Of a DNA stretch of 64,000 nucleotides, positions 6,890 to 58,153 are shown piece after piece. A program made the position numbers and the translations under genes. This stretch comes from Candidatus Shapirobacteria bacterium (GTDB lineage: Bacteria > Patescibacteriota > Microgenomatia > UBA12405): assembly GCA_041665485.1 (NCBI GenBank), contig JBAYIT010000005.1, forward strand, positions 1,974 through 65,973. Reading direction: 5' to 3'. The notes below the pieces were generated by a model, which saw only the letters and a list, made by a program, of their open reading frames with translations, made no database searches and was not told the DNA's origin. Position 1 is the first letter of the stretch; every line of letters starts with the position of its first letter.

Positions 6890-6973
6890 AGAGAGGAATT
6901 ATGAATTTACGAATTTAGAATTTACGAATCTGGAGATAAGAAATAAAATTTAAGAATTTAAAAAATAAGATTT

Positions 6974-9604: not shown

Positions 9605-9684
9605 TGAATTATAGTAACATGTACGAGTTTACAAACGAAACATGTTGGTTGAGACGAAAATTAGGACAATAAAGTTATAACCAG

Positions 9685-10155: not shown

Positions 10156-10487
10156 AGAAGAGGCCCTCTATATTTACCATCCACATCAAAGTCTTGGCTT
10201 GGAGGAATAGGTTTGTTGCCCTGACAATTTCGTCTTCGACAAAACGGATTGTCATTACCGACAGGACCCAGGCTACCCGCTTTGAATCGAACATAGAAAG
10301 ATGATAGTAAGTCATTCCGATTCATAAGTTTAGACTCAGCGCGATCTACAATTACGGCACAATGATTACATTGAGATCCATCTTCGGGTGGATCAATGAC
10401 AATTACACCAGTGAAGCCATTTCCAATTACCTCCCTGCCAAGTATTTTCATATAACCTATAATAACACGAAGTAGGAGGTTTGTCAA
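10152..10487 (-). CDS. hypothetical protein (Cys-containing, 111 aa)
   Basis: ORF only; the CNHC ... CRRRNC pattern is the only feature. Confidence 0.25.
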   Translation of the reverse strand: MTNLLLRVIIGYMKILGREVIGNGFTGVIVIDPPEDGSQCNHCAVIVDRAESKLMNRNDLLSSFYVRFKAGSLGPVGNDNPFCRRRNCQGNKPIPPSQDFDVDGKYRGPLL

Positions 10488-10775: not shown

Positions 10776-11258
10776 TTACCAACGTAAATGGGCGAAGGCT
10801 TTGTTGGCGTCGGCCATTCTTTCGATTTCGGCTCTTTTGGCAACAGAGGTGCCTTCGCTTTTGAGGGCGAGGGTGAGCTCGTTGGCCAATTTCAGACCAA
10901 ATGAGTGGAACTGTTTGTTTGGAAGTTTACGGGAATTGGCAATTAACCACCTGACGGCTAGGGAATCCTGACGATGACGACGGACGGGGGTGGGAACCTG
11001 GTAAACGGCACCACCAATGCGACGGGGGCGGACTTCAATTTTGGGACGGATGTTTTCTAGAGCTTGATCGACCAGAGTGGCGACTTCATCTTTGGGATTT
11101 TCTTTTTTTAAAATCTCTAAAGCTTGATAAACCTGCTTTTGGGCAGAAATTTTCTTACCGCCAATAAGGGAAGCGTTGATGATTTTTTGAACCAAAACAC
11201 TCTGATAGATGGGATCGGGGGTGATTTCCCGGGGTTTGATTGGACCTTTGCGTGACAT
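10776..11258 (-). CDS. rpsG: 30S ribosomal protein S7
   Basis: 160 aa; ends ...AEIERMADANKAFAHLRW, the S7 C-terminal signature. Confidence 0.95.
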   Translation of the reverse strand: MSRKGPIKPREITPDPIYQSVLVQKIINASLIGGKKISAQKQVYQALEILKKENPKDEVATLVDQALENIRPKIEVRPRRIGGAVYQVPTPVRRHRQDSLAVRWLIANSRKLPNKQFHSFGLKLANELTLALKSEGTSVAKRAEIERMADANKAFAHLRW

Positions 11259-11263
11259 ATATA

Positions 11264-11343
11264 AGTTATAAAGTTATAAAGTTTGAAAGTTATAAAGTTT
11301 GATAGTTATAAAGTTATAAAGTTTGAAAGTTATAAAGTTTGGA
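11264..11343. repeat. tandem array of ten 8-bp units AGTT(A/T)(T/G)AA (two copies of a 40-bp higher-order unit) in the rpsL-rpsG spacer
   Basis: agttataa agttataa agtttgaa agttataa agtttgat | agttataa agttataa agtttgaa agttataa agtttgga. Occupies almost the whole intergenic region directly before the rpsG ATG. Confidence 0.85.
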
Positions 11344-11346
11344 GGT

Positions 11347-11769
11347 TTATTTGGTGGCGGGGGCGGGGCGTTTGGCACCGTATTTGCTGCGGGACTGAAG
11401 GCGACCGACAACAGCACCGGCATCATATTTGCCACGAACAACATGATAACGAACACCTGGAAGGTCGCGGACACGACCGCCACGGACAGAAACGATGCCG
11501 TGCTCGGCCAGGTTGTGACCAACACCGGGGATATAAGCGGTGACCAGAGCATGATTGCTCAATCTGACTTTAGCGACTTTACGCAAAGCCGAATGGGGCT
11601 TTTTGGGAGTCATGGTTTTAACAACAGTGACAACGCCCTTTTTGGTGGGGTTGATGGTGTTGCTTAACTGGTTTTTAATGGAGTTGAAATTACGGCGAAG
11701 AGCGGCAGTTCTCTGCTTCTCGGTTCTGTCGCGACGACCTTTTTTGATGAGTTGATTGAATGTTGGCAT
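11347..11769 (-). CDS. rpsL: 30S ribosomal protein S12
   Basis: [13 protein letters not shown] ... [18 protein letters not shown] ... [19 protein letters not shown]. Confidence 0.95.
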
Positions 11770-11780
11770 AATTGAAGCAG

Positions 11781-14700
11781 TTAAAATTTAGCTGCCGGTA
11801 TTAAACGTCCGATAATAACATTTTCCTTAAGACCGATCAAGTTGTCGACCTCGGCCAGAAGTGAGGCTTCGGTGAGAACACTGGTGGTTTGCTGGAAAGA
11901 TGAGGCAGAAAGCCAAGAACCAGTTGATAAGGCCGATTGAATCAAACCAAGAAGAACCCGCTTGCCGGTGGCTAATTTGGCGGTTTTGTTGGCGAATTTA
12001 GCTTTTTCATTTTCATCAACAAAAACGGCTCGGGTGATGGTTTGACCATAGAGGAAGTTGGTGTCGCCTGGGTCTTCAATTTTGATCTTATCGCTCATTT
12101 CCTTGACGATAACTTCAAAGTGCTTATCGTGAATGGCGATGCCCTGGGATTCGTAAACACCCTGAATGCTATTGATAAGATACCTTTGAGAGGCTTCGAT
12201 ACCTTTGACCTCCATGACTTCCCGAACATCGAGAGAGCCGGAGCAAAGCTGGGTGCCGGCGGCGATGAGATCACCATCAGCAACTAGCAAGGAAACATTT
12301 GAAGGCAAGAGATAGGTGACAACTTTGGCTTTTTGGTTTTGATCTTTACCACTAAGTTTGACTTCAAAGCCATCAAGAGTTTCCTTAACTTTGACCTTAC
12401 CGCTGATTTCGGCCAGAGGTGAAGGAATTTTTGGAGTTCTGACTTCAAAAAGCTCCTGAACACGGGGCAAACCTTGGGTAACGTCGATACCAAGAACACC
12501 ACCGGTGTGCTTAGTTCGGAGAGTAAGCTGGGTGCCCGGCTCACCGATAGATTGAGCGCCGATGACACCGACGGGGACACCCATATCAACCAGTTTACGA
12601 GTGGAAAGATCCCAACCATAGCACTTTTGACAAATGCCGGTTTTGGAGTCGCAGGTAAGAGGCGAGAAGACGTCGACGGAATCGACACCACAAGAATCAA
12701 TTTGAGAAACGAGCTGATTATCTAAGAGAGTGCCCTTAGTAACAATGACTTTTTTGGTGGTAGGATCGATACAATCGGAAGCAATATAGCGACCCAAAAT
12801 CCGACGGGCAAAGTAGCGCTCGCGGTTTTTGTCGTTACGATTAATAGTAATAAACTGGCTAGTGCCACAATCAGCCTCGCGAATAAGGGAGGTGTGAACG
12901 GCGTCGACCAAACGGCGGGTAAGATAACCGGCATCGGCAGTTCTAAGAGCAGTGTCGGCTAAACCTTTACGAGTACCCCGGGCGCCGGTGACGTATTCAA
13001 AAACGGATAAGCCTTCGCGGAAGTTGGATTTAGTGGGCAGGGGAACAATTTTACCGGTGGGATCGACCATAAGACCTCTCATACCGGAGAGCTGTTTGAT
13101 TTGGTCTTTGGAAGCCCGCTTGATACCGGCGGCAGAAACAATTTTGATGGGAGAATCAGGAGAAAGAGTGTCCCAAGTTTTTTCGGCGATAACTTCGGTG
13201 TAATCCATCCAAATGGCCTGACTTAGACGTTTTTTCTCTTCCTGGCTAATAAGACCATTTTTAAAGTTGTCTTCAACCTGAGAAACTTTAGCATTGGCTT
13301 CGGAAATTAATTTTTCTTTGCCGGGAAGATAGCCACAATCAATCATTGATAATGACAAACCGGAAAGAGTGAAACCGAGGAAACCAATGTCTTTAAGATG
13401 GTCAATAAGCCTGGCGGTTTTGACTCGACCTAAAGTTTCAAGAGTTCTGACAACCAGGTCACTAATCGATTTGGAACCAGCCATAGGCTCGTTGACGTAG
13501 CCGAATTCGGAAGGAAGAATGCGATTAAACATGATCCGACCATAGGTGGTTTTGATAAATTGACCTTCAATTTTTAGGACAATAAGCTCTCTTAAACCAA
13601 GTTTACCGGATTGGTAGGCTAAATCAGCTTCAGCCCGACTACCCAAGATGGGGAGAGTGGCAAAACCGGGCGACTGCTCTTTGGCAAGATCTTCCTCGCG
13701 GACGGAAGTGATGTAATAACAACCGACGGCCATTTCTTGGGAAGGAACGGAGATGGGGTTGCCATCAGCCGGCTTGAGCAAGTTTCGGGAAGGCAACATG
13801 AGAAGTTTGGCCTCTTTTTGGGAATTAACCGAAAGGGGCAAGTGGACACCCATTTGGTCGCCATCGAAATCGGCATTGAAAGCTTTACAAATACAGGGAT
13901 GAAGACGAATGGCGAAACCATCGACCAAAACTGGCTTGAAGGCCTGAATGGAAAGCTTATGGAGAGTTGGGGCACGGTTGAGAAGAACGTAGGTGTTTTT
14001 GGTTATTTTTTCGAGAATGTCGTAGACCTCGTTGACCCGATGATCGATGAGGTTTTTAGCGCTTTTGATGTTGGGGGCCAAACCGGAAATCATCAGTTCA
14101 CGGAGAACGAAGGGGCGGTACATTTCCAGGGCAATTTCCTTGGGAAGACCGACCTGATTTAATTTAAGTTCGGGACCGACGACAATGACGGAACGACCGG
14201 AGTAATCGACGCGCTTACCGAGAAGGTTACGACGGAAACGACCCTTTTTACCACGAAGCAAATCAGACAGAGAGCGAGGGGTACGCTTGGTGGTTTTTCT
14301 CTTATTTTTGGCTGATTTTTGGGAGTCAATTAGAGCATCAACTGATTCCTGAAGCATTCTTTTTTCATTTCTAAGAATGATCTCGGGAGCATTGAGCTTG
14401 AGAAGTTTTTTCAACCGATTGTTGCGGTTAATTAAACGACGATAAAGGTCATTAAGGTCGGAGGTGGCAAAACGACCGCCGGTTAGTTGGACCATTGGAC
14501 GGAGATCTGGCGGAACGACTGGGACATTTTCCAAGATCATCCAAGAAGGAGAAATGCTGTTGGCGATCATGCCATTGAGAATCCTGATTTTGTACATGAT
14601 CTTCTTTTTCTTAAGACGACTGTTGGTTTTGTCGAGTTCTTTTTTGAGATTTTTGACGGTAGCTTCGAGATCTAATTGACCAAGTACCTGAGAAATGGCC

Positions 14701-15536
14701 TCAGCACCCATTCTTGATTCGTAAAAAATATCGGCTTTAAATTGGGAAAGATAAAAACTTTCTTCGTCAGTAATAATAGAGAGAACCTGGATTGACTCGA
14801 TCTTTTCCCTTAGGTATTGAACGAGGCTTTCGATGCGAGTTTTCTCGCTAACAGCCTTGTTTTCCAACTTTTGAATATCCTGCTTCAGTTTGACCTCTCT
14901 TTCTTCAATGGCGATTGAGAGCTGATCTTTGTTTTTGATCTTGGTTTTTAGTTCTTTAAGCTCGGTGGCAGTTTCCAGCTTTTTCTTTTCGGTGGCTGAT
15001 TTAGTTTCGGTGTTGATTTGATCCTGGCGATTTTTAGAATTGACCTCGAGGTTGGTCAAGGCTTCCCGACGCTTGTCCTGATTAACAGAGGTAATAAGAT
15101 ACTTAGTAAAATAGACGACAGATTCCAGCTCTTTTTGAGGAATGTCTAGGATGACACTTAGGGGTGAGGGGGTGTTGCGAAGATACCAGAGATGAGTAAC
15201 GGGGGCAGCGAGGGCGATATGGCCCATTCTTTCCCGCCTGACTTTGGAAGTGGTGACTTCAACACCGCAACGATCACAAACGACGCCCTTAAAACGAATT
15301 TTCTTGTATTTACCACAGTAACATTCATAATCATGGCTCGGTCCAAATATTTTTTCGCAAAAAAGACCATCTTTCTCAGGACGCCAACTACGATAATTGA
15401 TAGTTTCCGGCTTGGTGACTTCTCCGTTTGACCAAGAGAGAATGTCGGCAGGAGAGGCTAATTTAATTCGAAGGCCGCTAAAATCGTTGAGATTTTTGAA
15501 TTTAAACATATGTTTATTCCTGATTTGAGTCATCAA
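11781..15536 (-). CDS. rpoC: DNA-directed RNA polymerase subunit beta'
   Basis: 1251 aa. Catalytic NADFDGDQM motif; N-terminal zinc-binding Cys cluster (YECYCGKYK ... CDRCGVEV). Confidence 0.97.
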
Positions 15537-35826: not shown

Positions 35827-35881
35827 ATACTCGTATTATATAGGACACTTTAGACATATTCAATACTCAAATCTAGGTTAA

Positions 35882-38395: not shown

Positions 38396-39328
38396 TTATG
38401 GGGTATAAACTTGCATTAACCAATTAACTTGGCCGGCTTGGTCAAAATCAATTTTAAATAAATTAGTGTTAAAACAAACGTCACTATCGTAGGAAATGGT
38501 TTTATTGAACTCAGCAACATCTATTTTAGACAGTAGCGCTACGTCGTGGATATCAAGGCAATTAATTTCAGTTTCGAGTGGGAGCTTAAAAGTTCGCGTT
38601 AATTGGTTGCCACCATTTTCTATTCTGTAACCGTTTGGGGCCGAATCATCGTCTATCCACTCGACGTAGTCAATGTCAAAATATGGTTGGTTATTTTTTT
38701 GGTAAACCTTTTTGATGTTGCCAACTTTTACGGTTTTAGAGTTTAGGTGAAAAACATCTTTAGTCGAAGTGGTGGAAGTTGGGGTGGGTAAAAATTTAAA
38801 AGTGGAGAGGATTTGATCGCGGGTATTGTTATCGAAATTCAAAAACACAAACTGAACATAATGTTTATTATCAGGAGTTTTCTTTATGTAGTAATCTCCT
38901 TCGACAACATAACTTGGGCCAGTAAAATTAGTAAAAGTGTTGCTTCCCTTAATGGCAATTGGTAGCAATTTGCAACCCATACCGACTTCACATGAATCAA
39001 CTTCTTTTTTGACAATTTTTAATTCTGAATCATTTGAGATTAAAACATCGATTGTTACCTGTGGGCCAACGGAGTTTTCCGCATATGGGTAATCTATTTT
39101 TTTGAGTGTACGATTATCATCCGGATTTATTTGGTACTCGTTTTTTGGATATTGAAATTCAAAGCTGTATTTTTCATTAACATACGTTTGCCAGGTTGTT
39201 TCCGGAATAGGAGTTGGTGAAGTTGTTGATGGAACTGTCCTAGGGGTTAGTTGGTATTTGTTACTAATGGCGGCTAAAAGTAAAACTATGAAAATCGACG
39301 GAATGAAGAAATAAATAAATTTTGGCAT
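38396..39328 (-). CDS. secreted protein, paralogous-domain family (WQTYxNxKYSFEFQYP ... DQILSTFKFLP)
   Basis: 310 aa. Signal/TM MPKFIYFFIPSIFIVLLLAAISNKYQLTP nearly identical to the downstream paralog; T/P-rich linker. Confidence 0.6.
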   Translation of the reverse strand: MPKFIYFFIPSIFIVLLLAAISNKYQLTPRTVPSTTSPTPIPETTWQTYVNEKYSFEFQYPKNEYQINPDDNRTLKKIDYPYAENSVGPQVTIDVLISNDSELKIVKKEVDSCEVGMGCKLLPIAIKGSNTFTNFTGPSYVVEGDYYIKKTPDNKHYVQFVFLNFDNNTRDQILSTFKFLPTPTSTTSTKDVFHLNSKTVKVGNIKKVYQKNNQPYFDIDYVEWIDDDSAPNGYRIENGGNQLTRTFKLPLETEINCLDIHDVALLSKIDVAEFNKTISYDSDVCFNTNLFKIDFDQAGQVNWLMQVYTP

Positions 39329-39334
39329 TAATGA

Positions 39335-39913
39335 TTAATAAATAAAACTAAAAGTGGAGAGAATTTGATTAAATAAGGTACTCCATTTATTTTCGTACGC
39401 TTTACTGTAGATTGTTTGTATAGAAATACAGTATGTATCAGTGGAAATATTAATACTTCGGATTTTATCGGCTGGTTCATTGCTTAAGTATTCAATAACT
39501 GCTGGGTATTGGTTATTTAACTTAACTTGTTTGGTTAAAATCCCAACTGTTCCACGGGGTAGTTCTGAACATCTGTTGTTGTCGACAGTTATTAATAGCT
39601 TGATACCGGAAACTGTGTCGTATCCAAAGTTCTCATTGATAAATTTTTCTTCATAATCATTGGATTTAATTTCGATTCTTGATCCATTATCTAATCGCGA
39701 TGTTACTGGTTGAGAAAAGTTGTCTGGATATCTGATTTCGAAACTATATTGCTGGTTTTCGTAAGTTTTCCAAGATGTGATTGGAGTCGAAGTTGGGGTT
39801 GGTAAAACAGGGATTGGGGTGGTTTTGGGGATAAGTTGGTATTTACTACTAATCGAGGCAAGGAGGAGGACGATAAAAATGGCGGGGATGAAGAGGAAAA
39901 TAAACTTTGGCAT
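39335..39913 (-). CDS. secreted protein, tandem paralog (WKTYENQQYSFEIRYP ... FNQILSTFSFIY)
   Basis: 192 aa. N-terminus MPKFIFLFIPAIFIVLLLASISSKYQLIP. Confidence 0.6.
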   Translation of the reverse strand: MPKFIFLFIPAIFIVLLLASISSKYQLIPKTTPIPVLPTPTSTPITSWKTYENQQYSFEIRYPDNFSQPVTSRLDNGSRIEIKSNDYEEKFINENFGYDTVSGIKLLITVDNNRCSELPRGTVGILTKQVKLNNQYPAVIEYLSNEPADKIRSINISTDTYCISIQTIYSKAYENKWSTLFNQILSTFSFIY

Positions 39914-40035: not shown

Positions 40036-41094
40036 TTACCATTGGGGGAGGAAATGTTTAACATTGCTTGAATCGACGATAATTTGTTTGGTTTGGCCGT
40101 CAAAAACCATTAGAGCAACTTTACGGCACATACCTTCAATATTGCGCTTAAGTGTGCGGACACCGGCGTCGAAGCCTAATGGCCTAACAATTTGAGGCCA
40201 AATTTCGGGATTAATTTTAATTTCGTCGGGAGAGAGGCCAGCGTCTTTGAGAGCTTTGGGGAGAAGATAATCTTTGCCGATGTTGACTTTTTCGTCATCG
40301 GTGTAAGAGGGCATCTGAATTACCTCAAGACGGTCCATGACGGCGGTGGCAATCCGAGCAGTGTTGTTGCAAGTGGAAACGAATAGGGCCTGGGACAGGT
40401 CGAAGGGATAATCCAAATAATGATCAGTAAATCGGCTGTTTTGCTCGGGGTCGAGGAGTTCAACAAGAACACCCATAATGGTATTGAGAGCGTCGTCGGC
40501 AACCCGGTCGATTTCGTCAAGAAGAATGACAGGATTATTAGTGCCAGCTTGAGCCAGGCCACGAATAATGGCCCCTGGCTCAGCGTTGGGGTAAACCCGA
40601 GATTGGCCTCTTAAATATAACGGGTCGCCCAAACCACCAAAGGGAATACGAATAAGTTCTCGCCCGAGAACCTCGGCAATCGACATGGCCATGGTGGTTT
40701 TGCCAGTACCGACCAAACCAACAAAAAGCATGATAGGGGCCCGCATTTTCTGATCTGGCTGACGGTGTTTTTGGAGAGCAAGAACGGAGACGTATTCCAA
40801 AATTCTTTCTTTGACGGCATCGAGGCCGTAATGATTTTTATTGAGCTTTTCTTTGGCAAAATTAATGTCGAGAACGTCTTGACTTTGATGATCCCAGGGA
40901 AGTTTGATGACCCATTCAACGTATTTGGAGGCAGATTGATAAAAGGCCCAAAAAGTTTCTTCTGATTTTGAATTAATCTCTAGTTCGGAAAAAAGCTCCC
41001 CTAGTTTATCTTTAAGGCCAACCGGAAGAGAGAGACTGCTAGCTTTGGCCGATAATTTTTCAATCGCTTCTTTAGTCGTCAAAACAGAATCCAT
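40036..41094 (-). CDS. Lon-like AAA+ ATPase core lacking both the Lon N-terminal domain and the protease domain
   Basis: NHYGLDAVKERILEYVSVLALQ, Walker A GLVGTGKTT, ILLDEIDRV Walker B, sensor region; the ORF stops where the Lon protease domain would begin. Confidence 0.7.
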   Translation of the reverse strand: MDSVLTTKEAIEKLSAKASSLSLPVGLKDKLGELFSELEINSKSEETFWAFYQSASKYVEWVIKLPWDHQSQDVLDINFAKEKLNKNHYGLDAVKERILEYVSVLALQKHRQPDQKMRAPIMLFVGLVGTGKTTMAMSIAEVLGRELIRIPFGGLGDPLYLRGQSRVYPNAEPGAIIRGLAQAGTNNPVILLDEIDRVADDALNTIMGVLVELLDPEQNSRFTDHYLDYPFDLSQALFVSTCNNTARIATAVMDRLEVIQMPSYTDDEKVNIGKDYLLPKALKDAGLSPDEIKINPEIWPQIVRPLGFDAGVRTLKRNIEGMCRKVALMVFDGQTKQIIVDSSNVKHFLPQW

Positions 41095-41117
41095 GATTCA
41101 GTATAGAACAAAACCTA

Positions 41118-41182
41118 CGTCATCGCGAGGCCAAAGGCCGTGGCGATCTCAACGGGATTGCTTCGCTACGCTCGCAATGACG
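41118..41182. repeat. REP-like palindromic dispersed repeat, copy c (12-bp inverted arms cgtcatcgcgag / ctcgcaatgacg)
   Basis: Contains gggattgcttcgctacgctcgcaatgacg, near-identical to copy e at 58125-58153. Confidence 0.65.
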
Positions 41183-41188
41183 AAAAAC

Positions 41189-41220
41189 TATCTCCTCGGG
41201 GGGCGGAGGTCGGCGCGGAA
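41189..41220. repeat. 32-bp direct repeat, left copy (orphan duplicate of the pnp 3' end)
   Basis: tatctcctcggggggcggaggtcggcgcggaa is identical to 42359-42390, which encodes the pnp C-terminus RFRADLRPPRR plus the stop. Confidence 0.85.
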
Positions 41221-41261
41221 ACAAAAACTCTGAATCGGTGTGATATTATTCGTTTATATAT

Positions 41262-42350
41262 ATGCCTACTGACAAACTTCCTGAACTGTTTGGAAGAGAA
41301 GGTAATGAGGGTTTTGAGAGAGTCAGACCTTTTTGCTTAGATGTAGCAGATAGAGTAGATGCAGAATTAGCGACAAATAATGGTATTGTAGACCTACCAA
41401 CAATAACGGCATATAGTTATACTCTGTTGCTGGAAGGGGAGTATAGTGAGGGACTTAAAGCGATTTCATATACAAATCAACTTGATGATTATGCTAGAGG
41501 CGTATATGCTTTATCAGAAAAAAATGTTGGTAATGTGGCTGATCTTGGCTCCGAAGATAAGGCTTTATTGGCTTTAGTTCTGTCTATAAATTACTACCGA
41601 ATTGATAATGGCCACAAATATCAACTCAGTCATTTGAAACAGAATGAAGAATATTACCCGGGAAAAGATTTTAGAACTGGACTACAGATGGAAGAGACTT
41701 ACCTGGACCGGATCGGTGGCTGTCTTAGCTCTCTCGGTCTTGACCCAAACAGAACAGCTGATTACATTGCGAAGGCTGATGGCCAAGTACCATTTTCTAA
41801 ATGGCTAGTTCCTGGCGACATTATTGGGTTTGTAGAAGATCCGAGCAAATTTTTAAAGATAGCGCCAGCAAAACAAGAAGAAGTAGCGGTAGGTTTAGTT
41901 ACCCAGGACACAAAAGATACGTTTCCTTCGGTACATTCTCCCTACAGAGATGCAATGAGAAGGGCTATTGACGGATATCAAATAAAAGAAGAACGAGGGC
42001 GAGACCCTAATGTTTTTTTAAGAGAATCGAGGGCGGTAGCCAGAGTTATAAGTAAAAATGCCGATACAGAAACACTAAGACAAACGGGTATATGTTCTGA
42101 TAGCAAATCGATTGGTCGGGCGCTTGGTGATATTCGAAAGAATGGCTTGGTTGTTAACGGGTTGGATCTTGGTGGAGAAGGAAAAAAAAGATTAAGAGAT
42201 TTTCGGAAGGCGATTGTTTACGTTATGGATCCTAGTAGGTTGAAATTAGAAGAGGGAGAAAATCCAGCTGAAATTAGGAGTGTGTTTGAGGAATATTTAA
42301 GAGTACTTGACGAGGTAGGAGCAAAAAAATACAGTAAAGTGATGATTTAA
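41262..42350 (+). CDS. hypothetical protein (cargo of the DR-flanked insertion)
   Basis: 362 aa, no recognisable motif; tgtgatattat 13 nt upstream of the ATG is promoter-like. Confidence 0.5.
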   Translation: MPTDKLPELFGREGNEGFERVRPFCLDVADRVDAELATNNGIVDLPTITAYSYTLLLEGEYSEGLKAISYTNQLDDYARGVYALSEKNVGNVADLGSEDKALLALVLSINYYRIDNGHKYQLSHLKQNEEYYPGKDFRTGLQMEETYLDRIGGCLSSLGLDPNRTADYIAKADGQVPFSKWLVPGDIIGFVEDPSKFLKIAPAKQEEVAVGLVTQDTKDTFPSVHSPYRDAMRRAIDGYQIKEERGRDPNVFLRESRAVARVISKNADTETLRQTGICSDSKSIGRALGDIRKNGLVVNGLDLGGEGKKRLRDFRKAIVYVMDPSRLKLEEGENPAEIRSVFEEYLRVLDEVGAKKYSKVMI

Positions 42351-42357
42351 CCTCTTA

Positions 42358-44547
42358 TTATCTCCTCGGGGGGCGGAGGTCGGCGCGGAAGCGGCCAAAT
42401 TGGGGCCGGGGGCCGAAGTTAGCTTGAGACTCCCGGGGGCCATCGGTTGAACCAGGATGAGCAGATTTAAATTCCGGAGCAGATAACTTTATCTGATGAT
42501 TATCGTTGAAGCCGGAGACACGAACTTTAAGTTTGTCGCCGATTTTCATAATAGTGTTGGGGTCAGATAAAAAGCCACCAGTCATCTCGGAAACGTGAAG
42601 TAGGGCTTCACGGCCGGGAAGGAATTCAACAAAGGCGCCAAAATTTTCAATGCGGGTGACGGTGCCGTCAAACTCTTCGCCAACTTGGACTTCACGAACC
42701 ATCGATTCGATAGCAAAGACGGCTTTGTCAACATTGGCAATATCGGGCGAACAGACGGAAACCCGGCCATCGTCTTCAATGTCAATTTGAACTTGATATC
42801 TCTCCATTAAGGCTTTGATAGTTTTGCCACCACTGCCAACAACTTCGCCAATTTTTTCAACGGGAATGCGGACCATTTTAATTTTGGGGGCAAAAGGGGA
42901 AAGTTCGGCTTTGGGAGCAGTAATGGCTCTGTCCATAACATCAAGAATTTGGAGTCGGGCTTTAGTGGAAGCAACAAAAGTATCCCGAATCATGTCAAGA
43001 GAGAGGCCGGAGCGTTTGATGTCCAGCTGGATGGCAGTAATACCATCCCGAGTACCGGTAATTTTGAAATCCATGTCACCGTGATGATCTTCAATACCGG
43101 CAATGTCGGTTAAAAGCAAATATTTGCCACTGTCGTCGGAAACCATACCAACAGAAATACCGGCAACTTTGTTTTTGATGGGAACACCAGCATCCATTAA
43201 GGATAAAGTTGAACCACAAGTTGAGGCCATCGAAGATGAGCCGTTTTGAGACATAACTTCCGAAGTTAAGGTAATAGTGTAAGGAAACTCATCAACAGAA
43301 GGAATGACTGGCAAAAGAGCTTTTTCGGCCAAAGCTCCGTGGCCAATTTCCCGGCGGCCAGGGCGGCCGAAACGGCCGGTTTGACCGGTAGAAAATGGCG
43401 GAGCGGAGTAATAGTGAATATAGCGCTTAGTAGTTTCTCCTAAAGAATCCTGCAAATATTGTTGTTCGGATAGTGGGCCGAGAGTAGTAATAGTAACCGC
43501 TTGGGTTAAACCGCGTTGGAAAAGAGCCGAGCCATGAGTACAAGGTAAAACGCCGGTTTCAACGGAAACCGGGCGAATTTCGTCAAATCCACGTTTGTCG
43601 TAACGCTGGCCAGCAAGGGTCTGTTGACGGAAATAGCGGTGAATTAACAGGTCGAGAGCTTCCATCAAAAGGGACAGTTTAATTTCGCCTAATTTGATTT
43701 GAGGCTCGTAGGTGGATTCAACTTTTGATCTCAGAGCGATTTCGCCGGCAACATGGGCGCCGTCAGCGCCGGTAGCCATAAAGCTGGCAATATCATCTTT
43801 AAGTAAAGCATCAAGTTCAGAAATAAGACTCTCGGAGGGAGAACCGTTAATAAACTCAATTTTATTTTTACCGTATTTTTTAGCAAATTCAATCAATGAA
43901 GAATTGATTTGATCGCCAGTTTGGAAGGCAGTTTCCATACAAGCAAACATGGTGTCGTTATCAACTATCTGGGCGTCGGCTTCAATCATATTGATACCCT
44001 GACTATCGCGACAAACAAGAAGATCAAGACTGGATTTTAAACTTTCACTAATACTGGGGAATAAAGCCGGCTGGCCGTCAATATGACCAACTCGAACAGC
44101 AGAAACCGGGCCATTGAAAGGAATGTCAGAAATCATTAAAGCAGCGCTGGTGGCCAAAAAGGCGGGAACAACTACGTCGTGGTCTTTATCATTACTTAAA
44201 ACAGTAGCAATGACTTGAACTTCGTTTTTGAAACCAGAGGGAAAAAGAGGGCGGATGGCGCGATCAATAATCCGGCCAAAAAGGACGGCGGTGTCGGAAG
44301 GGCCACCTTCACGTTTAATCCATTTACCACCTTTGATAAAACCACCGGCATAAAGTTTGTCGGAAAATTCAACTGAAAGAGGAAAGTAATCTTTGGTTTC
44401 ATCGAGAGCTCCAAGGGTAACGGTGGCTAAAACAACGGTTTTGCCAAAAGTGGCTAAAACCGAGCCGTTAGCTTGAGGAGCGAGAGTGCCGGTTGAAAGG
44501 GTAACGATTTTGTTCCCAACAGAAATATCAAAGGAGTTGTTGTTCAT
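42358..44547 (-). CDS. pnp: polyribonucleotide nucleotidyltransferase (PNPase)
   Basis: 729 aa; two RNase PH domains, KH and S1 domains; C-terminal basic tail. Confidence 0.95.
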   Translation of the reverse strand: MNNNSFDISVGNKIVTLSTGTLAPQANGSVLATFGKTVVLATVTLGALDETKDYFPLSVEFSDKLYAGGFIKGGKWIKREGGPSDTAVLFGRIIDRAIRPLFPSGFKNEVQVIATVLSNDKDHDVVVPAFLATSAALMISDIPFNGPVSAVRVGHIDGQPALFPSISESLKSSLDLLVCRDSQGINMIEADAQIVDNDTMFACMETAFQTGDQINSSLIEFAKKYGKNKIEFINGSPSESLISELDALLKDDIASFMATGADGAHVAGEIALRSKVESTYEPQIKLGEIKLSLLMEALDLLIHRYFRQQTLAGQRYDKRGFDEIRPVSVETGVLPCTHGSALFQRGLTQAVTITTLGPLSEQQYLQDSLGETTKRYIHYYSAPPFSTGQTGRFGRPGRREIGHGALAEKALLPVIPSVDEFPYTITLTSEVMSQNGSSSMASTCGSTLSLMDAGVPIKNKVAGISVGMVSDDSGKYLLLTDIAGIEDHHGDMDFKITGTRDGITAIQLDIKRSGLSLDMIRDTFVASTKARLQILDVMDRAITAPKAELSPFAPKIKMVRIPVEKIGEVVGSGGKTIKALMERYQVQIDIEDDGRVSVCSPDIANVDKAVFAIESMVREVQVGEEFDGTVTRIENFGAFVEFLPGREALLHVSEMTGGFLSDPNTIMKIGDKLKVRVSGFNDNHQIKLSAPEFKSAHPGSTDGPRESQANFGPRPQFGRFRADLRPPRR

Positions 44548-45445: not shown

Positions 45446-46285
45446 TTAAGCTGTGGGGGGGGTAGAGGTACCGGAGGGGGAGAAGGTGCCACCATTATTA
45501 TTAATAAAGGCGGGTTTGGATTCGACGGCTTCGATAGGAGTGGGATTAATTACCGGCTGGGAGAGGCCATTGCCGGGGGCAACTGGCATTTCCGGCTGAG
45601 TGGCTCGGAGGCAGATAGCGCCGGCTTCAAAACTTTCCGGAGAAACATTAATAGAGAAGGACTGGGTAGCAACCCGAAGGCCAATGAGAAGATCTTTGCC
45701 AATATCGGCATTAAGACTTAGCCCAAGCATGGGTAATAAGAAAGTGAAGATTTCGGAAAAGGGAGCGTCGGGGTCAATAATTGAAGCTTTGGCCCAAGAC
45801 TTTTGAACATTAACGGGAGAAACAAAAACCCAGTTGCCTCGATTGACAATTGATGCGTTGGGGCCAAGAGAGCCTTCGTCGCCGAGCATAAAACAAATGT
45901 CAGCCACGGCCGACTGATTGTTGATACTAATTTGATTATTGTCGATTTGAGGCCCAGTGGATTTGGTTTTGACAACCAAGTTCAATTTTCCACCGTCGTC
46001 ATTGTAAGAAACCTGATCGATTTGATCGAGGGGATAAGTTAGGGAAATAACCAGGTCACTACCGCTAAAACTATCGCTTATTAGCTCTAATCCACTAAGT
46101 TTGGAATAATTTTGATCGGTTTTTTGGGGAGAGTAAACTTTAGCCTCAATATTCTTTTGTTTAAGGGAAAGGGCTAAGCCCAGGGCGGCGCCAACACTAT
46201 CAACACTAATTTGAGGAACAACAATGAGAGCAGTTTTGGCAGTGGAAAGAAGTGGGCTAATGGAAGAAACGTTATAATTTTTCAT
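45446..46285 (-). CDS. hypothetical protein, possibly a degenerate DHH-family (NrnA-like) protein by position between infB and rpsO
   Basis: 279 aa. Weak similarity around VVPQISVDSVGAALGLAL and MLGDEGSLG; the canonical DHH His residues are not evident. Confidence 0.25.
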   Translation of the reverse strand: MKNYNVSSISPLLSTAKTALIVVPQISVDSVGAALGLALSLKQKNIEAKVYSPQKTDQNYSKLSGLELISDSFSGSDLVISLTYPLDQIDQVSYNDDGGKLNLVVKTKSTGPQIDNNQISINNQSAVADICFMLGDEGSLGPNASIVNRGNWVFVSPVNVQKSWAKASIIDPDAPFSEIFTFLLPMLGLSLNADIGKDLLIGLRVATQSFSINVSPESFEAGAICLRATQPEMPVAPGNGLSQPVINPTPIEAVESKPAFINNNGGTFSPSGTSTPPTA

Positions 46286-47729: not shown

Positions 47730-47740
47730 ATTCGTATTTA

Positions 47741-47781
47741 CGTCATTGCGAGGAATTCTAATTTACGACGAAGCAATGACG
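47741..47781. repeat. REP-like palindromic dispersed repeat, copy d (reverse orientation; perfect 9-bp arms cgtcattgc / gcaatgacg)
   Basis: cgtcattgcgagg-aattctaatttacga-cgaagcaatgacg in the 53-bp nusA-infB spacer. Confidence 0.6.
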
Positions 47782-47782
47782 T

Positions 47783-48769
47783 TTAGGTTTTTTCGGCTTG
47801 AACTTTGATTTCAACTCCGGCTAAAATTCCAGCTAAATGGACGTTGTCACCACCGGAACCAATAGCCAAGGCTAATTGATTTTCAGGAACGGTGACAAAA
47901 GCAGTTCCGTTTTCGACAGAAACAACCTTAACACCTTCAGCCGGTGATAAGGCCTGGGCAATAAATTGAGACAGATTTTTGGAGAATTGAATAACATCAA
48001 CCTTCTCTTCATGGGAAAGTTCGCCAAGAATTGACTGAACGCGGGAGCCTTTTTGACCAATACAGGAACCAATTGGGTCGATCCCGGCTTCCTTGGAAGA
48101 GACAGCAACTTTAGTTCTGACGCCGGCGTTGCGGGCAATTTTTTCAACAATAACGGAACGATTGCCAACTTCGGGAACTTCCCTAGCAAAGAGCTGTTTT
48201 ATAAATTCGGGGTCACGGCGGGAAAGAATAATATCGCTTCGGCCACTTTCGTCTTTAATAATATCCTTAATAAGGAAGAGTTTTTTATCGCCAACGGCCA
48301 AGTCTTCAGCTTTAACCTGTTCTTCACGGGGGCAAATGGCCTCAATTCGACCGACGCCAACAGTTTGTTTGAATCCGTCAATTTTGAGAATGGTGCCAGA
48401 AATCAGGGCGCCAATTTTCTTTCGATATTCAGTTAAAATGGTTTCTTTTTCGGCCTCATGAATGCTTTGATCAATAACTTGTTTGGCAGTCTGGGCAGCG
48501 ATGCGACCAAAGCCGGGAGGAGTAACATCTTTTCTTTTGTCGTCGTCGACTTCAACTATCTTAAAAGACCCTGTTTCCGGGGAGAGTTCGGCTTCAAATT
48601 TAGTTTCTTCATCAATAATTGTTCCGTGTTCTTTTTGGTCACGCTTGTAAGCAGAAATTAGGCCAAGCTCGATGGAATCCAAAATTAACTGAACATCAAT
48701 GTTTCTTTCGCCGGCAATTTGAGCAACGGCGGCGGCAAACTCGGTTTTAGGTAATTTTTTTAAATCCAT
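47783..48769 (-). CDS. nusA: transcription termination/antitermination factor NusA
   Basis: 328 aa; N-terminal domain, S1 and KH domains. Confidence 0.9.
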   Translation of the reverse strand: MDLKKLPKTEFAAAVAQIAGERNIDVQLILDSIELGLISAYKRDQKEHGTIIDEETKFEAELSPETGSFKIVEVDDDKRKDVTPPGFGRIAAQTAKQVIDQSIHEAEKETILTEYRKKIGALISGTILKIDGFKQTVGVGRIEAICPREEQVKAEDLAVGDKKLFLIKDIIKDESGRSDIILSRRDPEFIKQLFAREVPEVGNRSVIVEKIARNAGVRTKVAVSSKEAGIDPIGSCIGQKGSRVQSILGELSHEEKVDVIQFSKNLSQFIAQALSPAEGVKVVSVENGTAFVTVPENQLALAIGSGGDNVHLAGILAGVEIKVQAEKT

Positions 48770-54174: not shown

Positions 54175-54492
54175 TTATTTTATAAACTTTTTGACTTCTT
54201 GGTGGTCGCCGACAAAAACTAAAATTACTTGTTTTTCGGCATGAACAAGATAAAAAATACAGCGATAGCTCAAGTTTATACGAAACTCGCCAACTTCGTC
54301 GACTTGGTTAACTTTAAGGAACTTTTGGCTAACATTTAATTTCTTGATGTTAAGACTTGGGTATTTTGGATCGTTTGATAATAATTTAAGCTTTTGATCA
54401 AAACTCTTTTTTAAACCCTTGGGGATATTCTTGGCAAAGGACCTAGAAAATGATTTGTCAAAAAATACGCCGTAACTGGAATCAAAATTCAT
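54175..54492 (-). CDS. RelE/ParE-superfamily toxin-like protein
   Basis: 105 aa; FRINLSYRCIFYLVHAEKQVILVFVGDHQ resembles the RelE/HigB C-terminal pattern; overlaps the upstream Panacea-domain gene by 11 nt. Confidence 0.5.
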   Translation of the reverse strand: MNFDSSYGVFFDKSFSRSFAKNIPKGLKKSFDQKLKLLSNDPKYPSLNIKKLNVSQKFLKVNQVDEVGEFRINLSYRCIFYLVHAEKQVILVFVGDHQEVKKFIK

Positions 54493-55027
54493 AGGGAATG
54501 AGATTTTTTCTATTTACTAGCGGCAGTTTGTTTTCATCAATAGAGAGAGAATCACCATTATCATCAAAAAAAGTTTCGAGGGAAGAAAGTTTCTTGTCGA
54601 TTATTTGCCCCATTTTTTTGCCGTTACCGGTGGTAATACGGTAAGAATCGGTGGCATGGGACAGAGTAACTAGTTCGCTCTCACTAAGACTGGAATATTT
54701 TTCGATCAATGGATCAATGACTTGACCAACTTCTTTGGAGAGATTAATGGCTGGAGTTGAAGTTAGATGAACAAAATTACCGTCAATTTTAATTAACCCC
54801 CGCTTCTCCATGTTAGCCAACAATGATTTATAGTCGTGAATAACCGGACCGTAATTAATACCGGCGTAAGAGGCCGAAGATAGGTCTTGACCAGTTTTAA
54901 AACGGTAGCCAAACTCAACAAAAAAGGCAATTTTATTAAGCTTTAATTTGCCGCTTTGTTTAGGTTCGAGACGAGCAAGTAAATAAAGGAGATAATCCGA
55001 TGGGGAGAATTTGAATTTTGTAGTCAT
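54482..55027 (-). CDS. Panacea-domain (DUF4065, SocA/PanA-like) antitoxin-type protein
   Basis: KLNKIAFFVEFGYRFKTGQDLSSASYAGINYGPVIHDY matches the Panacea core (KLqKLlYf ... YGPV). Confidence 0.6.
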   Translation of the reverse strand: MTTKFKFSPSDYLLYLLARLEPKQSGKLKLNKIAFFVEFGYRFKTGQDLSSASYAGINYGPVIHDYKSLLANMEKRGLIKIDGNFVHLTSTPAINLSKEVGQVIDPLIEKYSSLSESELVTLSHATDSYRITTGNGKKMGQIIDKKLSSLETFFDDNGDSLSIDENKLPLVNRKNLIPYEF

Positions 55028-55050: not shown

Positions 55051-58000
55051 CTACTTAAACCACTTGCCCTCGAGGGAGTGTAGATGATCGGGGTCGGGGC
55101 AGGCGGGATTAATGGGAAACTCTAGGGCAGTTATTTTAGCGTAGGTGTCGGCAATAAGATTAGTGAGGTTTAACTCGTCTTCGGGTGTAATTTTAAAACT
55201 GGGACGGACAAATTGATCACGGCTATTTTTTTGAATAAAATCAATAGTACCGGTAAGATGGGTATACTTAAAGCTTTTACTTTGGTCAACTAATAATTTA
55301 TAAAAGACTAATTGGCGAAAGTAACTGCCATCGGGCCTTAGATCTTTGGATTTAGTGTCGGGATTGCCGGTTTTAAAATCAACAAGGTTAATTAGGCTGT
55401 CTGGCAATATCTCTATCTTATCTATTTTGCCAGTGATGGGAATGTTTTTAAGCTGAATATTGTAGCTCCTAAAATCTTTCTCACTAAAGCAGTTGGTGGA
55501 AAATTCTCTTTGATAGTGGTTATAGTAATCGGTAAGATGAAGTTTGCCGGTAACCAACAAATCATCATAGTCTTGTTTGACTAAATTTTCCCGGTAAAGA
55601 TTTTTTTGAAAAACGGCTAAAAATTGATCAAGATCAATAAGTTGGCCTGTATTTTTGTAAACAGAAAAAAGATAAGCCAAGCTTCCATGAACACTAGTAC
55701 CAAAAGAGAGGGGTTTAGATTTGGCCTTGGGAATTTTTAAGATAGTGTTGAAAAAAAAGCAGAGGGGGCATTTAAGGTAAGAGTTGAGGTGGGTAATATT
55801 GAAGCGATATTTTTGACTAAAGTAAGTAATTAAATAACCGGCGATATCAGGCTTGAGCGAGGTCAATGGCTTTAGGGTAAATTGGTTTTGGAGAGCCAGT
55901 TCTTCAACTTTTACGTCGGCTGATTTTATATCAAGTAGACTTTTGTCGATTTCACTTAAAAAACGGCTTTGGGGTTGCTCTCGGCCATCGGGGGTTTTGG
56001 TGGTGGAAGAAATATAAATCTGGTCTTTGGCCCGAGTGAGAGCGACGTAGAAAAGACGGCGATTTTCCTCAAGTTCTTCATCATAAAGGGCTTCGGTGAC
56101 TCCGGTTTCAATGATGCCGAGGGGGAGTTTGAGGAGATTTCTACCCCGTGATTCTTCCCAGTGGGAGGCGAGAGTTTTGATCAAAAAAACGTGTTCGAAT
56201 TCGAGACCTTTGGCCTTATGAACAGTTAAAAGATGAATCGATTTGGATGAATCTGACAAAAGCGGAGGAGAAACAAGAGAAATATTTTCTGATTGAAAAA
56301 TAGTAAGGCGAGCAACAATATCACCAAAGTTTAGATCGGAGTTGTTTTTAAACTCGGAGTAAAGCCGATCAAGTTGTTTTAAGAGATTTAGGTTTTGTTT
56401 TTTAAGGACTGATTTAACAAAACCAAATCGGCGGATAATTCGATTAAAATTTTCTTGTGATGAAAAATTATTTAGACGAAGATGGGCCTTTTTTATATTT
56501 ATAAATAATTTGGTCTTTTTTAGGAGTTTGTTTTTAAAGATACGGTAAACTTTTTTGTTTGAGTAGCCAATAAAATCAAAACACAGAACCCGACCCAAGA
56601 GATCTTGACTGTCGGGATTAATAACAAGACGAAAAAGATCGATAAGCTGGTTAATTTCGAGAGTGTTAAAGATATTAGCGCCAAAATCTTTTTGAAAATA
56701 GATTTCGTTTTGAGTCAGAACAGGAATCAGATCATCAAAGTCTTTATTGTTTCGAGCTAAAATAGCGATTTGATTAGGAAGAGTGCCGGAGGTGATTAAA
56801 TCTTTGATGGTCGAGATGATCCAAAAATTCTCTTCAGTGGCCGAGCCAGCCGTGAAAAGATTAATTGGATCGGGGTCAAAACCACGGGTGGGGACGAGAG
56901 TCTTGGCAATCCTATTTTGATTAAAATTAATTAATTGTTGGCTGGCATTGATGATTGAGTGATGACTACGATAATTATTTTTTAAGACAATATTCTGTGG
57001 AGAAAAATCTTGGGAAAACCGTTGAACATTTTCAACAGAGGCGCCCTGAAAACGAAAAATTGACTGATCGTCATCGCCAACAACAAAAATATTGGGTTGT
57101 GATTGATGGCTGGTGAGGAGACGAATAATTTGATTTTGAGCAGAGTTGGTGTCTTGATATTCATCAACCAAAATGTACTGATATCTTTCTTGATATTGAG
57201 ACAAAAGAGTGGGATTTTGGGAAAAAGAATTAATGACTTCAAGAATGAGATCATCAAAATCAAAACGGCGACGGACTAAAAGTTCCTGTTGGTACTGGGG
57301 GTAAAGAGAAACCAGTTCCAGTTGTTTTGGATAATTTTTTTGGCAGTCGTCACAAAAGGCGATAAAGGCTGATTTCATTAATTTTGGATTTATTAGATCC
57401 TTAAGAATGGCCGATATTTTAACCCGGTAGGCAGAGTTCAGATCGGGTATTTTAATAATTTGCTCAAAAATATCGGTGATTTGGGAATAGTTTTTTGGGT
57501 AGGCAGTGATTGATTTTAGTTGTTGATAAAAAGAAAAGGTTAAATCAAGAAAGTTTTTAGCCTGATTAACCAAAAGAGATAAGCTTTCTTTGGAAATATT
57601 TTCTTTTTTAAGGCTACTAATGGCAGAAATAATTTGTTCTTGATAATAGTAGGTATCAACCGGACTTTTGAGAGGGCTTTGAGGAGGAAGAGAGTCAATT
57701 AAGTGGCGGATAATTTGGATTTGTTCGATTTTGTCCAAAGGCTGGCTGTCAAACTGAAATCTAATGAAAAACTCGGGGTTGGACTTAATAATGGAAAAAC
57801 AAAGTGAGTGAAAGGTACCAATTTTGACCGAATGGGCGGTGGAACCAATAATTGACAGAAGCCGAGAACGCATATTTTGAGCGGCATTATCGGTAAAAGT
57901 TAAACAAAGGATAGAACTAGGATCGACTTGGGTTTCCAGTAAAATTTTGGCGACTCTTAGGGCAATAGTTTGAGTTTTGCCGGTGCCGGCTCCAGCAAAC

Positions 58001-58089
58001 ACCATTACTGGCCCTTCGATAGTGTCAACGGCCAGTTTTTGCTCAGGGTTGAGAGAGTTGTATAAATTTAAAAAATTTGTTTTGTCCAT
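55051..58089 (-). CDS. UvrD/PcrA-family helicase fused to a C-terminal RecB-family PD-(D/E)xK nuclease with a Cys cluster (AddA/AddB-like)
   Basis: Walker A FAGAGTGKTQT; helicase motifs; C-terminal CPLCFFFN, DFKTG ... QLVFYKLL nuclease motifs, terminal CPDPDH. Confidence 0.8.
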   Translation of the reverse strand: MDKTNFLNLYNSLNPEQKLAVDTIEGPVMVFAGAGTGKTQTIALRVAKILLETQVDPSSILCLTFTDNAAQNMRSRLLSIIGSTAHSVKIGTFHSLCFSIIKSNPEFFIRFQFDSQPLDKIEQIQIIRHLIDSLPPQSPLKSPVDTYYYQEQIISAISSLKKENISKESLSLLVNQAKNFLDLTFSFYQQLKSITAYPKNYSQITDIFEQIIKIPDLNSAYRVKISAILKDLINPKLMKSAFIAFCDDCQKNYPKQLELVSLYPQYQQELLVRRRFDFDDLILEVINSFSQNPTLLSQYQERYQYILVDEYQDTNSAQNQIIRLLTSHQSQPNIFVVGDDDQSIFRFQGASVENVQRFSQDFSPQNIVLKNNYRSHHSIINASQQLINFNQNRIAKTLVPTRGFDPDPINLFTAGSATEENFWIISTIKDLITSGTLPNQIAILARNNKDFDDLIPVLTQNEIYFQKDFGANIFNTLEINQLIDLFRLVINPDSQDLLGRVLCFDFIGYSNKKVYRIFKNKLLKKTKLFINIKKAHLRLNNFSSQENFNRIIRRFGFVKSVLKKQNLNLLKQLDRLYSEFKNNSDLNFGDIVARLTIFQSENISLVSPPLLSDSSKSIHLLTVHKAKGLEFEHVFLIKTLASHWEESRGRNLLKLPLGIIETGVTEALYDEELEENRRLFYVALTRAKDQIYISSTTKTPDGREQPQSRFLSEIDKSLLDIKSADVKVEELALQNQFTLKPLTSLKPDIAGYLITYFSQKYRFNITHLNSYLKCPLCFFFNTILKIPKAKSKPLSFGTSVHGSLAYLFSVYKNTGQLIDLDQFLAVFQKNLYRENLVKQDYDDLLVTGKLHLTDYYNHYQREFSTNCFSEKDFRSYNIQLKNIPITGKIDKIEILPDSLINLVDFKTGNPDTKSKDLRPDGSYFRQLVFYKLLVDQSKSFKYTHLTGTIDFIQKNSRDQFVRPSFKITPEDELNLTNLIADTYAKITALEFPINPACPDPDHLHSLEGKWFK

Positions 58090-58124
58090 GGATTAATTTA
58101 TAGTGGGCAGTGATATGTCCAGAC

Positions 58125-58153
58125 GAGATTGCTTCGCTACGCTCGCAATGACG
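58125..58153. repeat. REP-like dispersed repeat, copy e
   Basis: gagattgcttcgctacgctcgcaatgacg, 28/29 identical to the core of copy c. Confidence 0.65.

Follow-up and report, generated by a model that had tools for sequence, protein, structure and literature searches.

How does an orphan gene enter a conserved row of housekeeping genes and leave the row undamaged? The question is raised by a 64-kb stretch of DNA (hereafter the window, whose coordinates are used for all its positions) from an uncultured groundwater-type bacterium, Candidatus Shapirobacteria. In this window, the 3′ end of pnp, the essential RNA-degradation gene that encodes polynucleotide phosphorylase, is present twice, and the DNA between the two copies carries a single orphan gene. 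We describe the locus as a known but mechanistically unsolved type of insertion, insertion with long target duplication, here found in the Patescibacteria and with an orphan gene instead of restriction–modification genes as cargo.

A duplicated pnp tail and the DNA between its copies

The repeated sequence, TATCTCCTCGGGGGGCGGAGGTCGGCGCGGAA, is 32 nucleotides (nt) long and occurs exactly twice in the window, at 41189–41220 and 42359–42390, with 32/32 identical positions and a spacing of 1170 nt. No further copy was found in the 64 kb, even at three mismatches, and 100 shuffles gave no match. The copy at 42359–42390 is attached to pnp, which lies on the minus strand (42358–44547) and encodes 729 amino acids with two RNase_PH domains and RNase_PH_C, KH (KH_1), and S1 domains according to Pfam. 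This copy consists of the final 30 coding nt of the gene plus the TA of its TAA stop codon (42358–42360), and the encoded C terminus reads ...RFRADLRPPRR. The orphan copy at 41189–41220, read on the pnp-sense strand, also gives ...RFRADLRPPRR, with G as the next base and hence a TAG stop; the third base of the stop codon differs between the copies, and the TAG-ended orphan copy is probably the original pnp end. The initial annotation of this DNA had reported perfect 32-bp direct repeats bracketing an insert and had equated the repeat with the last 30 nt of pnp plus the stop codon. The repeat pair and the 30 coding nt are as described there, whereas only the TA of the stop codon belongs to the repeat.

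With its edges set by the limits of repeat identity, the inserted DNA spans 41221–42358 (1,138 nt, 40% guanine plus cytosine [GC]), and its last base, 42358, is the third base of today's pnp stop codon. Identity is 100% up to the repeat edges and absent immediately beyond them. There are no terminal inverted repeats, the insert ends being ACAAAAACTCTG... and ...AACCTCTTAT, and Pfam detects no transposase domain in the insert. Neither blastn nor tblastx matched the insert to any other part of the window or to about 2 Mb of related loci, and it is single copy. The idea that it is a degraded second copy of pnp or of some other gene nearby was rejected for lack of any similarity. No tRNA was found, and Rfam gave no match in the insert at the gathering score; the sole weak match, to rpsL sRNA (E = 0.13), lies inside the cargo open reading frame (ORF) and was dismissed. 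Promoter and terminator scans yielded nothing over the shuffled background.

The same arrangement is present in a MEGAHIT contig (k141, 75 kb) and in a Joint Genome Institute (JGI) contig (41 kb), both junctions being spanned in each. One explanation to be considered is an assembly artefact, for which the initial annotation had allowed, or a decayed local tandem duplication of pnp sequence, given that short exact repeats can mislead assemblers and that a Logan contig (k = 31) breaks at the repeat. That contig corresponds exactly to 41191–42388, limits that arise because a 32-nt repeat breaks a k = 31 graph, and it fits a circular as well as an integrated form. Since the two assemblies have an identical structure, the arrangement is not an assembly artefact. 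The abrupt loss of identity at the repeat edges, together with an insert that resembles neither pnp nor the rest of the window, argues in the same direction, and we regard this explanation as extremely improbable. The sequence predicted for an empty-site junction is ...GCAATGACGAAAAAC + 32-mer + GCGGCCAAATTGG..., and that predicted for a circle junction is ...GATTTAACCTCTTAT + 32-mer + ACAAAAACTCTGAATCGG....

Evidence that the segment was inserted comes from some 45 Shapirobacteria-type loci, with pnp products 56 to 73% identical to that of the window at the amino acid level, taken from genome and metagenome collections. The gene order rpsO, pnp, Lon-like AAA+ ATPase gene is conserved across the fetched loci. 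In the window, the conserved neighbor downstream of pnp is found at 40036–41094 on the minus strand and encodes 352 amino acids with the Pfam domains AAA and Lon_lid; it had been called lon, but it has no protease domain. The distance from the pnp stop to the AAA+ start is 18 to 77 nt, with a single pnp tail, in about 29 of about 43 related loci, and 19 to 20 nt in the closest relatives; in the window, it is 1,263 nt. The short gap in about two-thirds of the related loci identifies the segment in the window as an insertion with target duplication, and the earlier proposal of an insertion beside the pnp 3′ end that duplicated the stop region is thereby borne out. When a palindromic element beside the orphan copy (described below), one repeat copy, and the 1,138-nt insert are subtracted, what remains is pnp, TAG, a spacer of exactly 20 nt with the motif TATACT, and the AAA+ start. 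This is the ancestral state, to which the palindrome was added first and the cargo segment later. The full C terminus and stop codon of pnp are retained, as is the region upstream of the AAA+ gene. The pnp products of the relatives finish in ...RPRR or ...RPPRR, which shows that the duplicated peptide is native to pnp; further upstream, the tail is poorly conserved between species.

The TATACT motif, read from the sequence as a −10-like box at 41100–41105 on the minus strand, lies 5 nt upstream of the AAA+ gene start and precedes this start in all relatives, 5 to 9 nt before the start codon, which suggests that the AAA+ gene has its own promoter and a leaderless mRNA. The comparison of the pnp–lon interval that had been recommended with the initial annotation thus provided the short gap with a single tail but not a conspecific one-copy site: metagenome and genome scans gave no pnp closer than 73% amino acid identity, and exact look-ups of the pnp and AAA+ proteins returned the filled site only.

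In the remaining third of the loci (about 14, among them L009, L016, L018, L023, L088, L095, L099, L105, L106, L109, and L114), the pnp-to-AAA+ gap holds unrelated small genes and no detectable pnp-end repeat. Judging from these sequences, the gap is a permissive hot spot for gene gain. One gap gene is common to L009 and L095 and another to L016 and L109. By eye, and unscanned, a 162-amino acid gap ORF in L018 appears CYTH-like, and one of 92 amino acids in L114 resembles an XRE-type helix-turn-helix protein.

Recurrence at the ends of other genes

Similar structures exist elsewhere in the related sequences. One, in L108, was found by blastn of the pnp tail of each locus against its own downstream DNA, and the others emerged from self-comparison of all 1.78 Mb of fetched loci. 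All but a 5′-end case, described last, share an architecture: the last 27 to 44 coding nt of a gene are duplicated up to the stop codon, and the copies enclose one to three small orphan genes.

Locus L108 comes from another species, with a pnp that is 72% identical, and carries a pnp tail duplication of 41 nt (1336–1376 and 1730–1770, 37/41 identical). There, pnp ends in ...FRNFGPPSRPRR-TAA, followed by a 354-nt insert with an unrelated 96-amino acid orphan ORF, for which no homologue was found; then come the orphan copy, comprising the last 38 coding nt plus the stop codon, 27 nt, and the AAA+ start. The arrangement is the same in more than 10 independent assemblies or samples, L185–L194 included. 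Locus L006, whose pnp is 96.4% identical to that of L108, represents the corresponding empty site, with one copy at about 7119–7159. Nucleotide identity between L108 and L006 is 96.4% on the pnp side of the insertion and 87.4% on the AAA+ side, a drop that indicates a recombination breakpoint at the insertion.

Other genes are affected in the same manner. In L005, the gene after infB has 32 nt of its 3′ end duplicated (7034–7065 and 7361–7392) around an 89-amino acid ORF, L006 again providing the empty site. In L033, an Amesbacteria genome, it is 31 nt at the 3′ end of the orthologous gene after infB (5973–6003 and 7247–7277), with three small ORFs in between; this duplication halts after TA, as in the window, the gene being closed by TAA and the orphan copy by TAG. 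In L018, 51 nt from the 3′ end of the RNase J gene are present twice (14290–14340 and 14952–15002), the copies enclosing a degenerate ORF of the insertion sequence (IS) IS200-like type, and L013, L015, L025, and L027 have empty sites. A 5′ end is involved in L073, where a 124-nt duplication of the beginning of rpsO (4750–4873 and 6874–6997) encloses two ORFs.

The five 3′-end duplications (window, L108, L005, L033, and L018), with lengths of 31, 32, 32, 41, and 51 nt, all end within −1 to +4 nt of the final stop-codon base. In these five cases, the inserts measure 0.3 to 1.3 kb and contain one to three tiny ORFs; their cargoes are mutually unrelated, and their repeats are different and unique. 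Pfam detected no recombinase domain in any cargo ORF that was scanned; for the five scanned in L005, L033, L018, and L073, the only hit was to Y1_Tnp, a weak one, in L018. Between the copies in the sister cases there are eight differences, seven of them at synonymous third positions (10 of 12 if the rpsO 5′-end case is counted). If an orphan copy had simply decayed after duplication, about 40% of the differences would be expected to be synonymous, and the observed bias has P ∼0.003 to 0.009. The predominance of synonymous differences suggests that the two copies were alleles that both evolved as coding sequence.

The five lengths are near whole numbers of helical turns, which may be a coincidence. 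A possible sixth sister case, a 170-nt repeat in L047, was rejected; it reflects two adjacent genes with a common dockerin-like C-terminal domain. Locus L073 also contains a 324-amino acid gene that, by eye only and unscanned, looks like a Xer-like tyrosine recombinase; it lies between paralogous genes of 123 to 132 amino acids whose 3′ ends form 48-nt direct repeats (1171–1218 and 2680–2727).

Known insertion types and possible mechanisms

Insertion with long target duplication was named by Kobayashi's group, and its mechanism is unsolved (Nobusato 2000, Gene 259:99; Furuta 2010, PMC2853133; see also PMC3457768). The reported cases have target duplications of more than 30 bp, no other mobile elements, and repeats that often lie across a stop or start codon, and they come mostly from naturally competent species; restriction–modification cargo was the search criterion, and solitary genes inserted likewise were also reported (PMC2853133). 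The locus described here shares with this class a unique direct repeat of more than 30 bp around the inserted DNA (a single copy at an empty site is seen for the sister case L108, in L006), the lack of a transposase or integrase, a repeat that spans the stop codon and leaves the target gene intact, and lengths that vary by event. In the window, the 32 nt are unique within 64 kb, and the insert is smaller than 20 kb and has no mobility genes. It differs in its cargo, which in the known cases consists of restriction–modification or solitary R/M genes (in Helicobacter, Haemophilus, Neisseria, and others) and is here an orphan gene in the Patescibacteria, also known as the candidate phyla radiation (CPR), and in the size of its repeats, which at 31 to 51 nt stand at the short end of the reported range of 46 to >400 bp.

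Another parallel is the C-terminal displacement seen in Rhs, contact-dependent inhibition (CDI), and type VI secretion system (T6SS) genes, which leaves orphan 3′ ends and has been attributed to homology-facilitated illegitimate recombination (PMC5361080). In both situations, incoming DNA is anchored on a conserved part of a gene and brings a new 3′ end plus one or more downstream genes, the resident 3′ end being displaced as an orphan. In those systems, however, the new end encodes a new toxin domain and the orphans are long, whereas here the tails are identical or nearly so and comprise only 30 to 44 coding nt; moreover, pnp is a housekeeping gene and not a polymorphic toxin gene. A third comparison concerns cis-mobilizable elements (CIMEs), exemplified by the elements related to ICESt1 and ICESt3 at the 3′ end of fda in Streptococcus thermophilus. 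Such elements are flanked by attL and attR and lack an integrase (PMC6323972), and like the present insert they are integrase-less DNA bounded by direct repeats, with a housekeeping gene's 3′ end as the duplicated sequence. CIMEs, however, derive from and are mobilized by a cognate integrative and conjugative element (ICE) whose integrase knows their att sites; here, neither such an ICE or integrase nor a further occurrence of the repeat was found in the sequences scanned; the present inserts are also 10 to 100 times smaller. From an insertion sequence or transposon, the insert in the window differs in having no transposase, no terminal inverted repeats, and no multiple copies.

For the event in the window, we favor recombination with DNA of a related strain, of the homology-facilitated illegitimate type, a reading that draws on the sister cases and that we hold with about even confidence. 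The incoming DNA would stem from a closely related strain or its virus and would carry a pnp 3′ end followed by the cargo. It would pair with the chromosome via the pnp coding sequence, and the nonhomologous far end of the donor would undergo illegitimate joining at a point 32 nt upstream of the resident stop, so that the resident pnp tail would be pushed downstream and become the orphan copy. The same product would come from an equivalent route in which a circularized fragment enters by a single crossover within the 32-nt homology. Under this scheme, the duplications would end at the stop codon because homology between the incoming DNA and that of the resident does not extend past the coding sequence. 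The host-like GC content of the cargo and its host-like leaderless start context, despite repeats that are 100% identical, would point to a related donor rather than to long residence.

The initial annotation had instead interpreted the repeat as the att core of a site-specific integrase and the segment as a satellite or a decayed island. A small element bearing its own pnp 3′ end would then have been integrated by a tyrosine or serine recombinase encoded elsewhere, leaving a CIME- or satellite-like element or an island remnant without integrase. A gene 3′ end that receives DNA and is restored in the process is what att integration classically looks like, and two species have pnp tail duplications that begin at a common upstream boundary. 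In L108, moreover, the four mismatches are placed as expected from one reciprocal crossover with an L006-like attB and an attP of different sequence as partners, and synonymous-only differences would also be expected where an element-borne copy must serve as a gene end. As the initial annotation had already remarked, however, a recombinase is missing: precomputed Pfam annotation and a Pfam scan of the remaining ORFs gave no integrase or transposase in the 64-kb window or in the annotated neighboring part of the 75-kb contig, and the window is annotated with housekeeping genes only, apart from one for a Bro-N protein and an antitoxin-like one with a Panacea domain; these two encode neither a recombinase nor a transposase. 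A 24-nt core of the repeat had no match in IMG/VR and none in the metagenome collection, the latter result being limited in that this collection also lacks the source contig. The cargo has no homologue in the databases searched and the element was seen in no second place, which is unexpected for DNA mobilized in trans. Since the pnp tail is species-specific, each species would need its own matching attP; the other genes and repeats with the same architecture would each need their own recombinase specificity; and it is improbable that the five inserts of 0.3 to 1.3 kb are without exception decayed islands with both att sites retained. Different unique repeats, species-specific targets, tiny unrelated orphan cargoes, and the lack of a recombinase thus argue against one att/integrase system. 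A dif/Xer-type site was rejected as well, the 32-mer having no dif-like dyad symmetry (by inspection) and lying inside a species-variable coding tail. We consider the att explanation unlikely, and integrase-independent insertion with long target duplication is more likely than an att-bounded satellite.

It is likewise improbable, in our view, that the repeats are a true target-site duplication, for which a nuclease or transposase-like activity would make staggered nicks about three helical turns apart, foreign DNA would be ligated, and the gaps would be filled, selection having kept those events that spared pnp and the downstream promoter. The IS1202 group is reported to make 24- to 29-bp duplications. 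The identity of the copies in the window would fit such a process, as would the clustering of lengths (three of the five are 31 to 32 nt, and the other two are 41 and 51 nt), and the literature describes the class as target duplication (PMC2853133). Yet there are neither terminal inverted repeats nor a transposase, the cargo is a single-copy orphan, and the location of all five ends at a stop codon needs the added selection argument. The synonymous bias of the differences in the sister cases is not predicted by fill-in followed by decay, and this bias, together with the break in identity between L108 and L006, favors recombination with related DNA over a cut-and-fill duplication.

Recombination with related DNA has difficulties of its own. 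For the window, no conspecific empty site, donor, or excised circle was found, and as the copies are identical, the allelic test based on synonymous differences has nothing to act on; in the sister cases, this test rests on 8 to 12 differences, and P is ∼0.03 (hand estimate) if transitions dominate. The duplications in the window and in L108 start at homologous TTCCGC (Phe-Arg) codons, and this common upstream boundary hints at a site preference, which random illegitimate joining does not predict. With three of the five duplications being 31 to 32 nt long, the lengths are more like an enzyme-set stagger than like random joints. Locus L020 contains the insert of L018 without the distal copy, which indicates that histories can be more complex. 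The model also presupposes a donor in which the cargo already lies beside pnp, and none was observed. Finally, homology-facilitated illegitimate recombination usually deletes recipient DNA and does not duplicate it.

A farther-reaching idea, which we think quite unlikely, is that Patescibacteria harbor a class of minimal, integrase-less single-gene cassettes that insert exactly at the stop codons of housekeeping genes, use a copy of the last 30 to 50 nt of the gene as recombination site, and are moved by an unrecognized host or viral recombinase or by the competence/recombination machinery. If such cassettes existed, they would be a main route of orphan-gene gain in streamlined genomes, and the 1,170-nt unit in the window would exemplify one that arrived recently and can still move.

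Small and highly syntenic, the genomes of CPR/Patescibacteria are also rich in orphan genes. The locus in the window and the four sister cases, within about 1.8 Mb of related sequence, offer a concrete entry route for orphan genes into a conserved housekeeping row that stays undamaged. A single locus of this kind would be a curiosity; the recurrent pattern and the allelic signature are of wider value. Recombination between the direct repeats could later remove the insert or amplify it.

The cargo gene and neighboring features

The cargo ORF (41262–42350, plus strand) encodes 362 amino acids and is the only ORF between the repeat copies. It is convergent with pnp, the two stop codons lying 7 nt apart, and its 41-nt upstream region is AT-rich and has no Shine–Dalgarno sequence, as in host genes. 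The GC contents of its three codon positions are 0.53, 0.38, and 0.28 (GC1 > GC2 > GC3), with an overall value of 39.9% as compared with a window mean of 41.6%. Based on its 362 codons, this positional GC pattern, and the host-like upstream region, the ORF looks like a real gene. The initial annotation had judged its codon usage to be unlike that of the core genes, which is weakly true (synonymous-codon likelihood z = −1.3, GC3 z = −1.8); in this respect, the gene resembles the other plus-strand genes of the window.

That this opposite-strand ORF has no recognizable domain, as had been noted, was confirmed by the lack of family matches in Pfam, NCBIfam, and PADLOC; PHROGs gave two subsignificant matches (E = 0.015 and 0.083). 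Neither a methyltransferase nor a nuclease domain was detected with Pfam or PADLOC. Among 5.8 billion protein clusters, the cargo protein matched itself alone. An exhaustive phmmer search of 1.84 billion representatives produced one match, a 1,307-amino acid MucBP-like repeat protein, which we judged spurious because its 11 repeats inflate the score and the pairwise alignments cover only 34 to 36 amino acids at 38 to 39% identity. A sequence search of the PDB returned de novo designed helical proteins only (E > 0.05), and there was no match in phages or plasmids (tblastn) or in a scan of IMG/VR. AlphaFold2 run without an alignment gave an all-helical model with a predicted local distance difference test (pLDDT) score of 40, which is unusable; at this score, matches from a fold search would be meaningless. 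The profile searches and structure prediction that had been suggested for this protein therefore assigned it to no family. The cargo is not recognizable as a defense, mobility, or metabolic gene, and it is probably a real, expressed, lineage-specific accessory protein.

The palindromic element next to the orphan copy is a 65-nt imperfect repeat (41118–41182), flanked by AAAACCTA (41110–41117) and AAAAACTA (41183–41190), which form an 8-nt direct repeat with 7/8 identical positions. Its right half recurs at 58123–58153, and a fragment is found near 47730–47760, upstream of infB; the element contains GATTGCTTCGCTACGCTCGCAATGACG. A 27-mer from the palindrome has exact matches in 15 unrelated IMG/VR viral contigs. 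The palindrome described earlier as resembling repetitive extragenic palindromic (REP) sequences does exist, with a DNA fold z-score of only −2.0, and we interpret it as a separate, widespread small repeat element that was inserted earlier, at the old pnp stop and outside the cargo insertion. Other palindromes, GTAGAGACGC...GCGTCTCTAC and GTAGGAACATGCCGCGGCATGTTCCTAC, occupy the same intergenic spots in related loci, namely the post-pnp gap of L010 (about 10217–10443) and the insert of L018 and L020 (about 14341–14950 in L018). In L018 and L020, one palindrome adjoins the truncated IS200-like ORF (Y1_Tnp, weak match), which suggests a system resembling REP sequences and their associated tyrosine transposases (REP/RAYT) in genomes of this type.

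The genes around pnp differ in their closest relatives. Comparing pnp (42358–44547) with the regions 45446–46285, 47783–48769, and 40036–41094, we found that pnp is nearest the L087/L104/L004 group (71 to 73% amino acid identity), and that a flanking 279-amino acid gene, NusA, and the AAA+ protein are nearest L008 and L093 (73 to 77%). There may be gene-level mosaicism around pnp, the relatives being too distant for a breakpoint to be placed in the window.

Most genes of the window have no Shine–Dalgarno sequence and carry a TATAAT- or TATACT-like box 5 to 10 nt before the start (e.g., 41095–41105, 9605–9634, and 35827–35856), which suggests that leaderless mRNAs are widespread in the host organism. 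Between the AAA+ gene and an NYN gene lies a low-GC islet (38396–39913; 30 to 37% as compared with 42 to 47% in its flanks), at whose borders no repeat was found. Its ORFs are absent from the related loci: two are paralogous orphans of 310 and 192 amino acids, with N termini that are 62% identical, and another has 42 amino acids. Three further features are unlinked to the insertion: the protein with the phage-associated Bro-N domain (2399–3238), the SocA/Panacea-domain antitoxin-like gene (54482–55027) with an adjacent 105-amino acid ORF, and a UvrD-PDDEXK (AddA-like) helicase-nuclease (55051–58089). The rpsL–rpsG spacer contains about 12 tandem copies of an 8-nt unit (AAGTTATA / AAGTTTGA) at 11256–11357, directly upstream of the rpsG start (11258).

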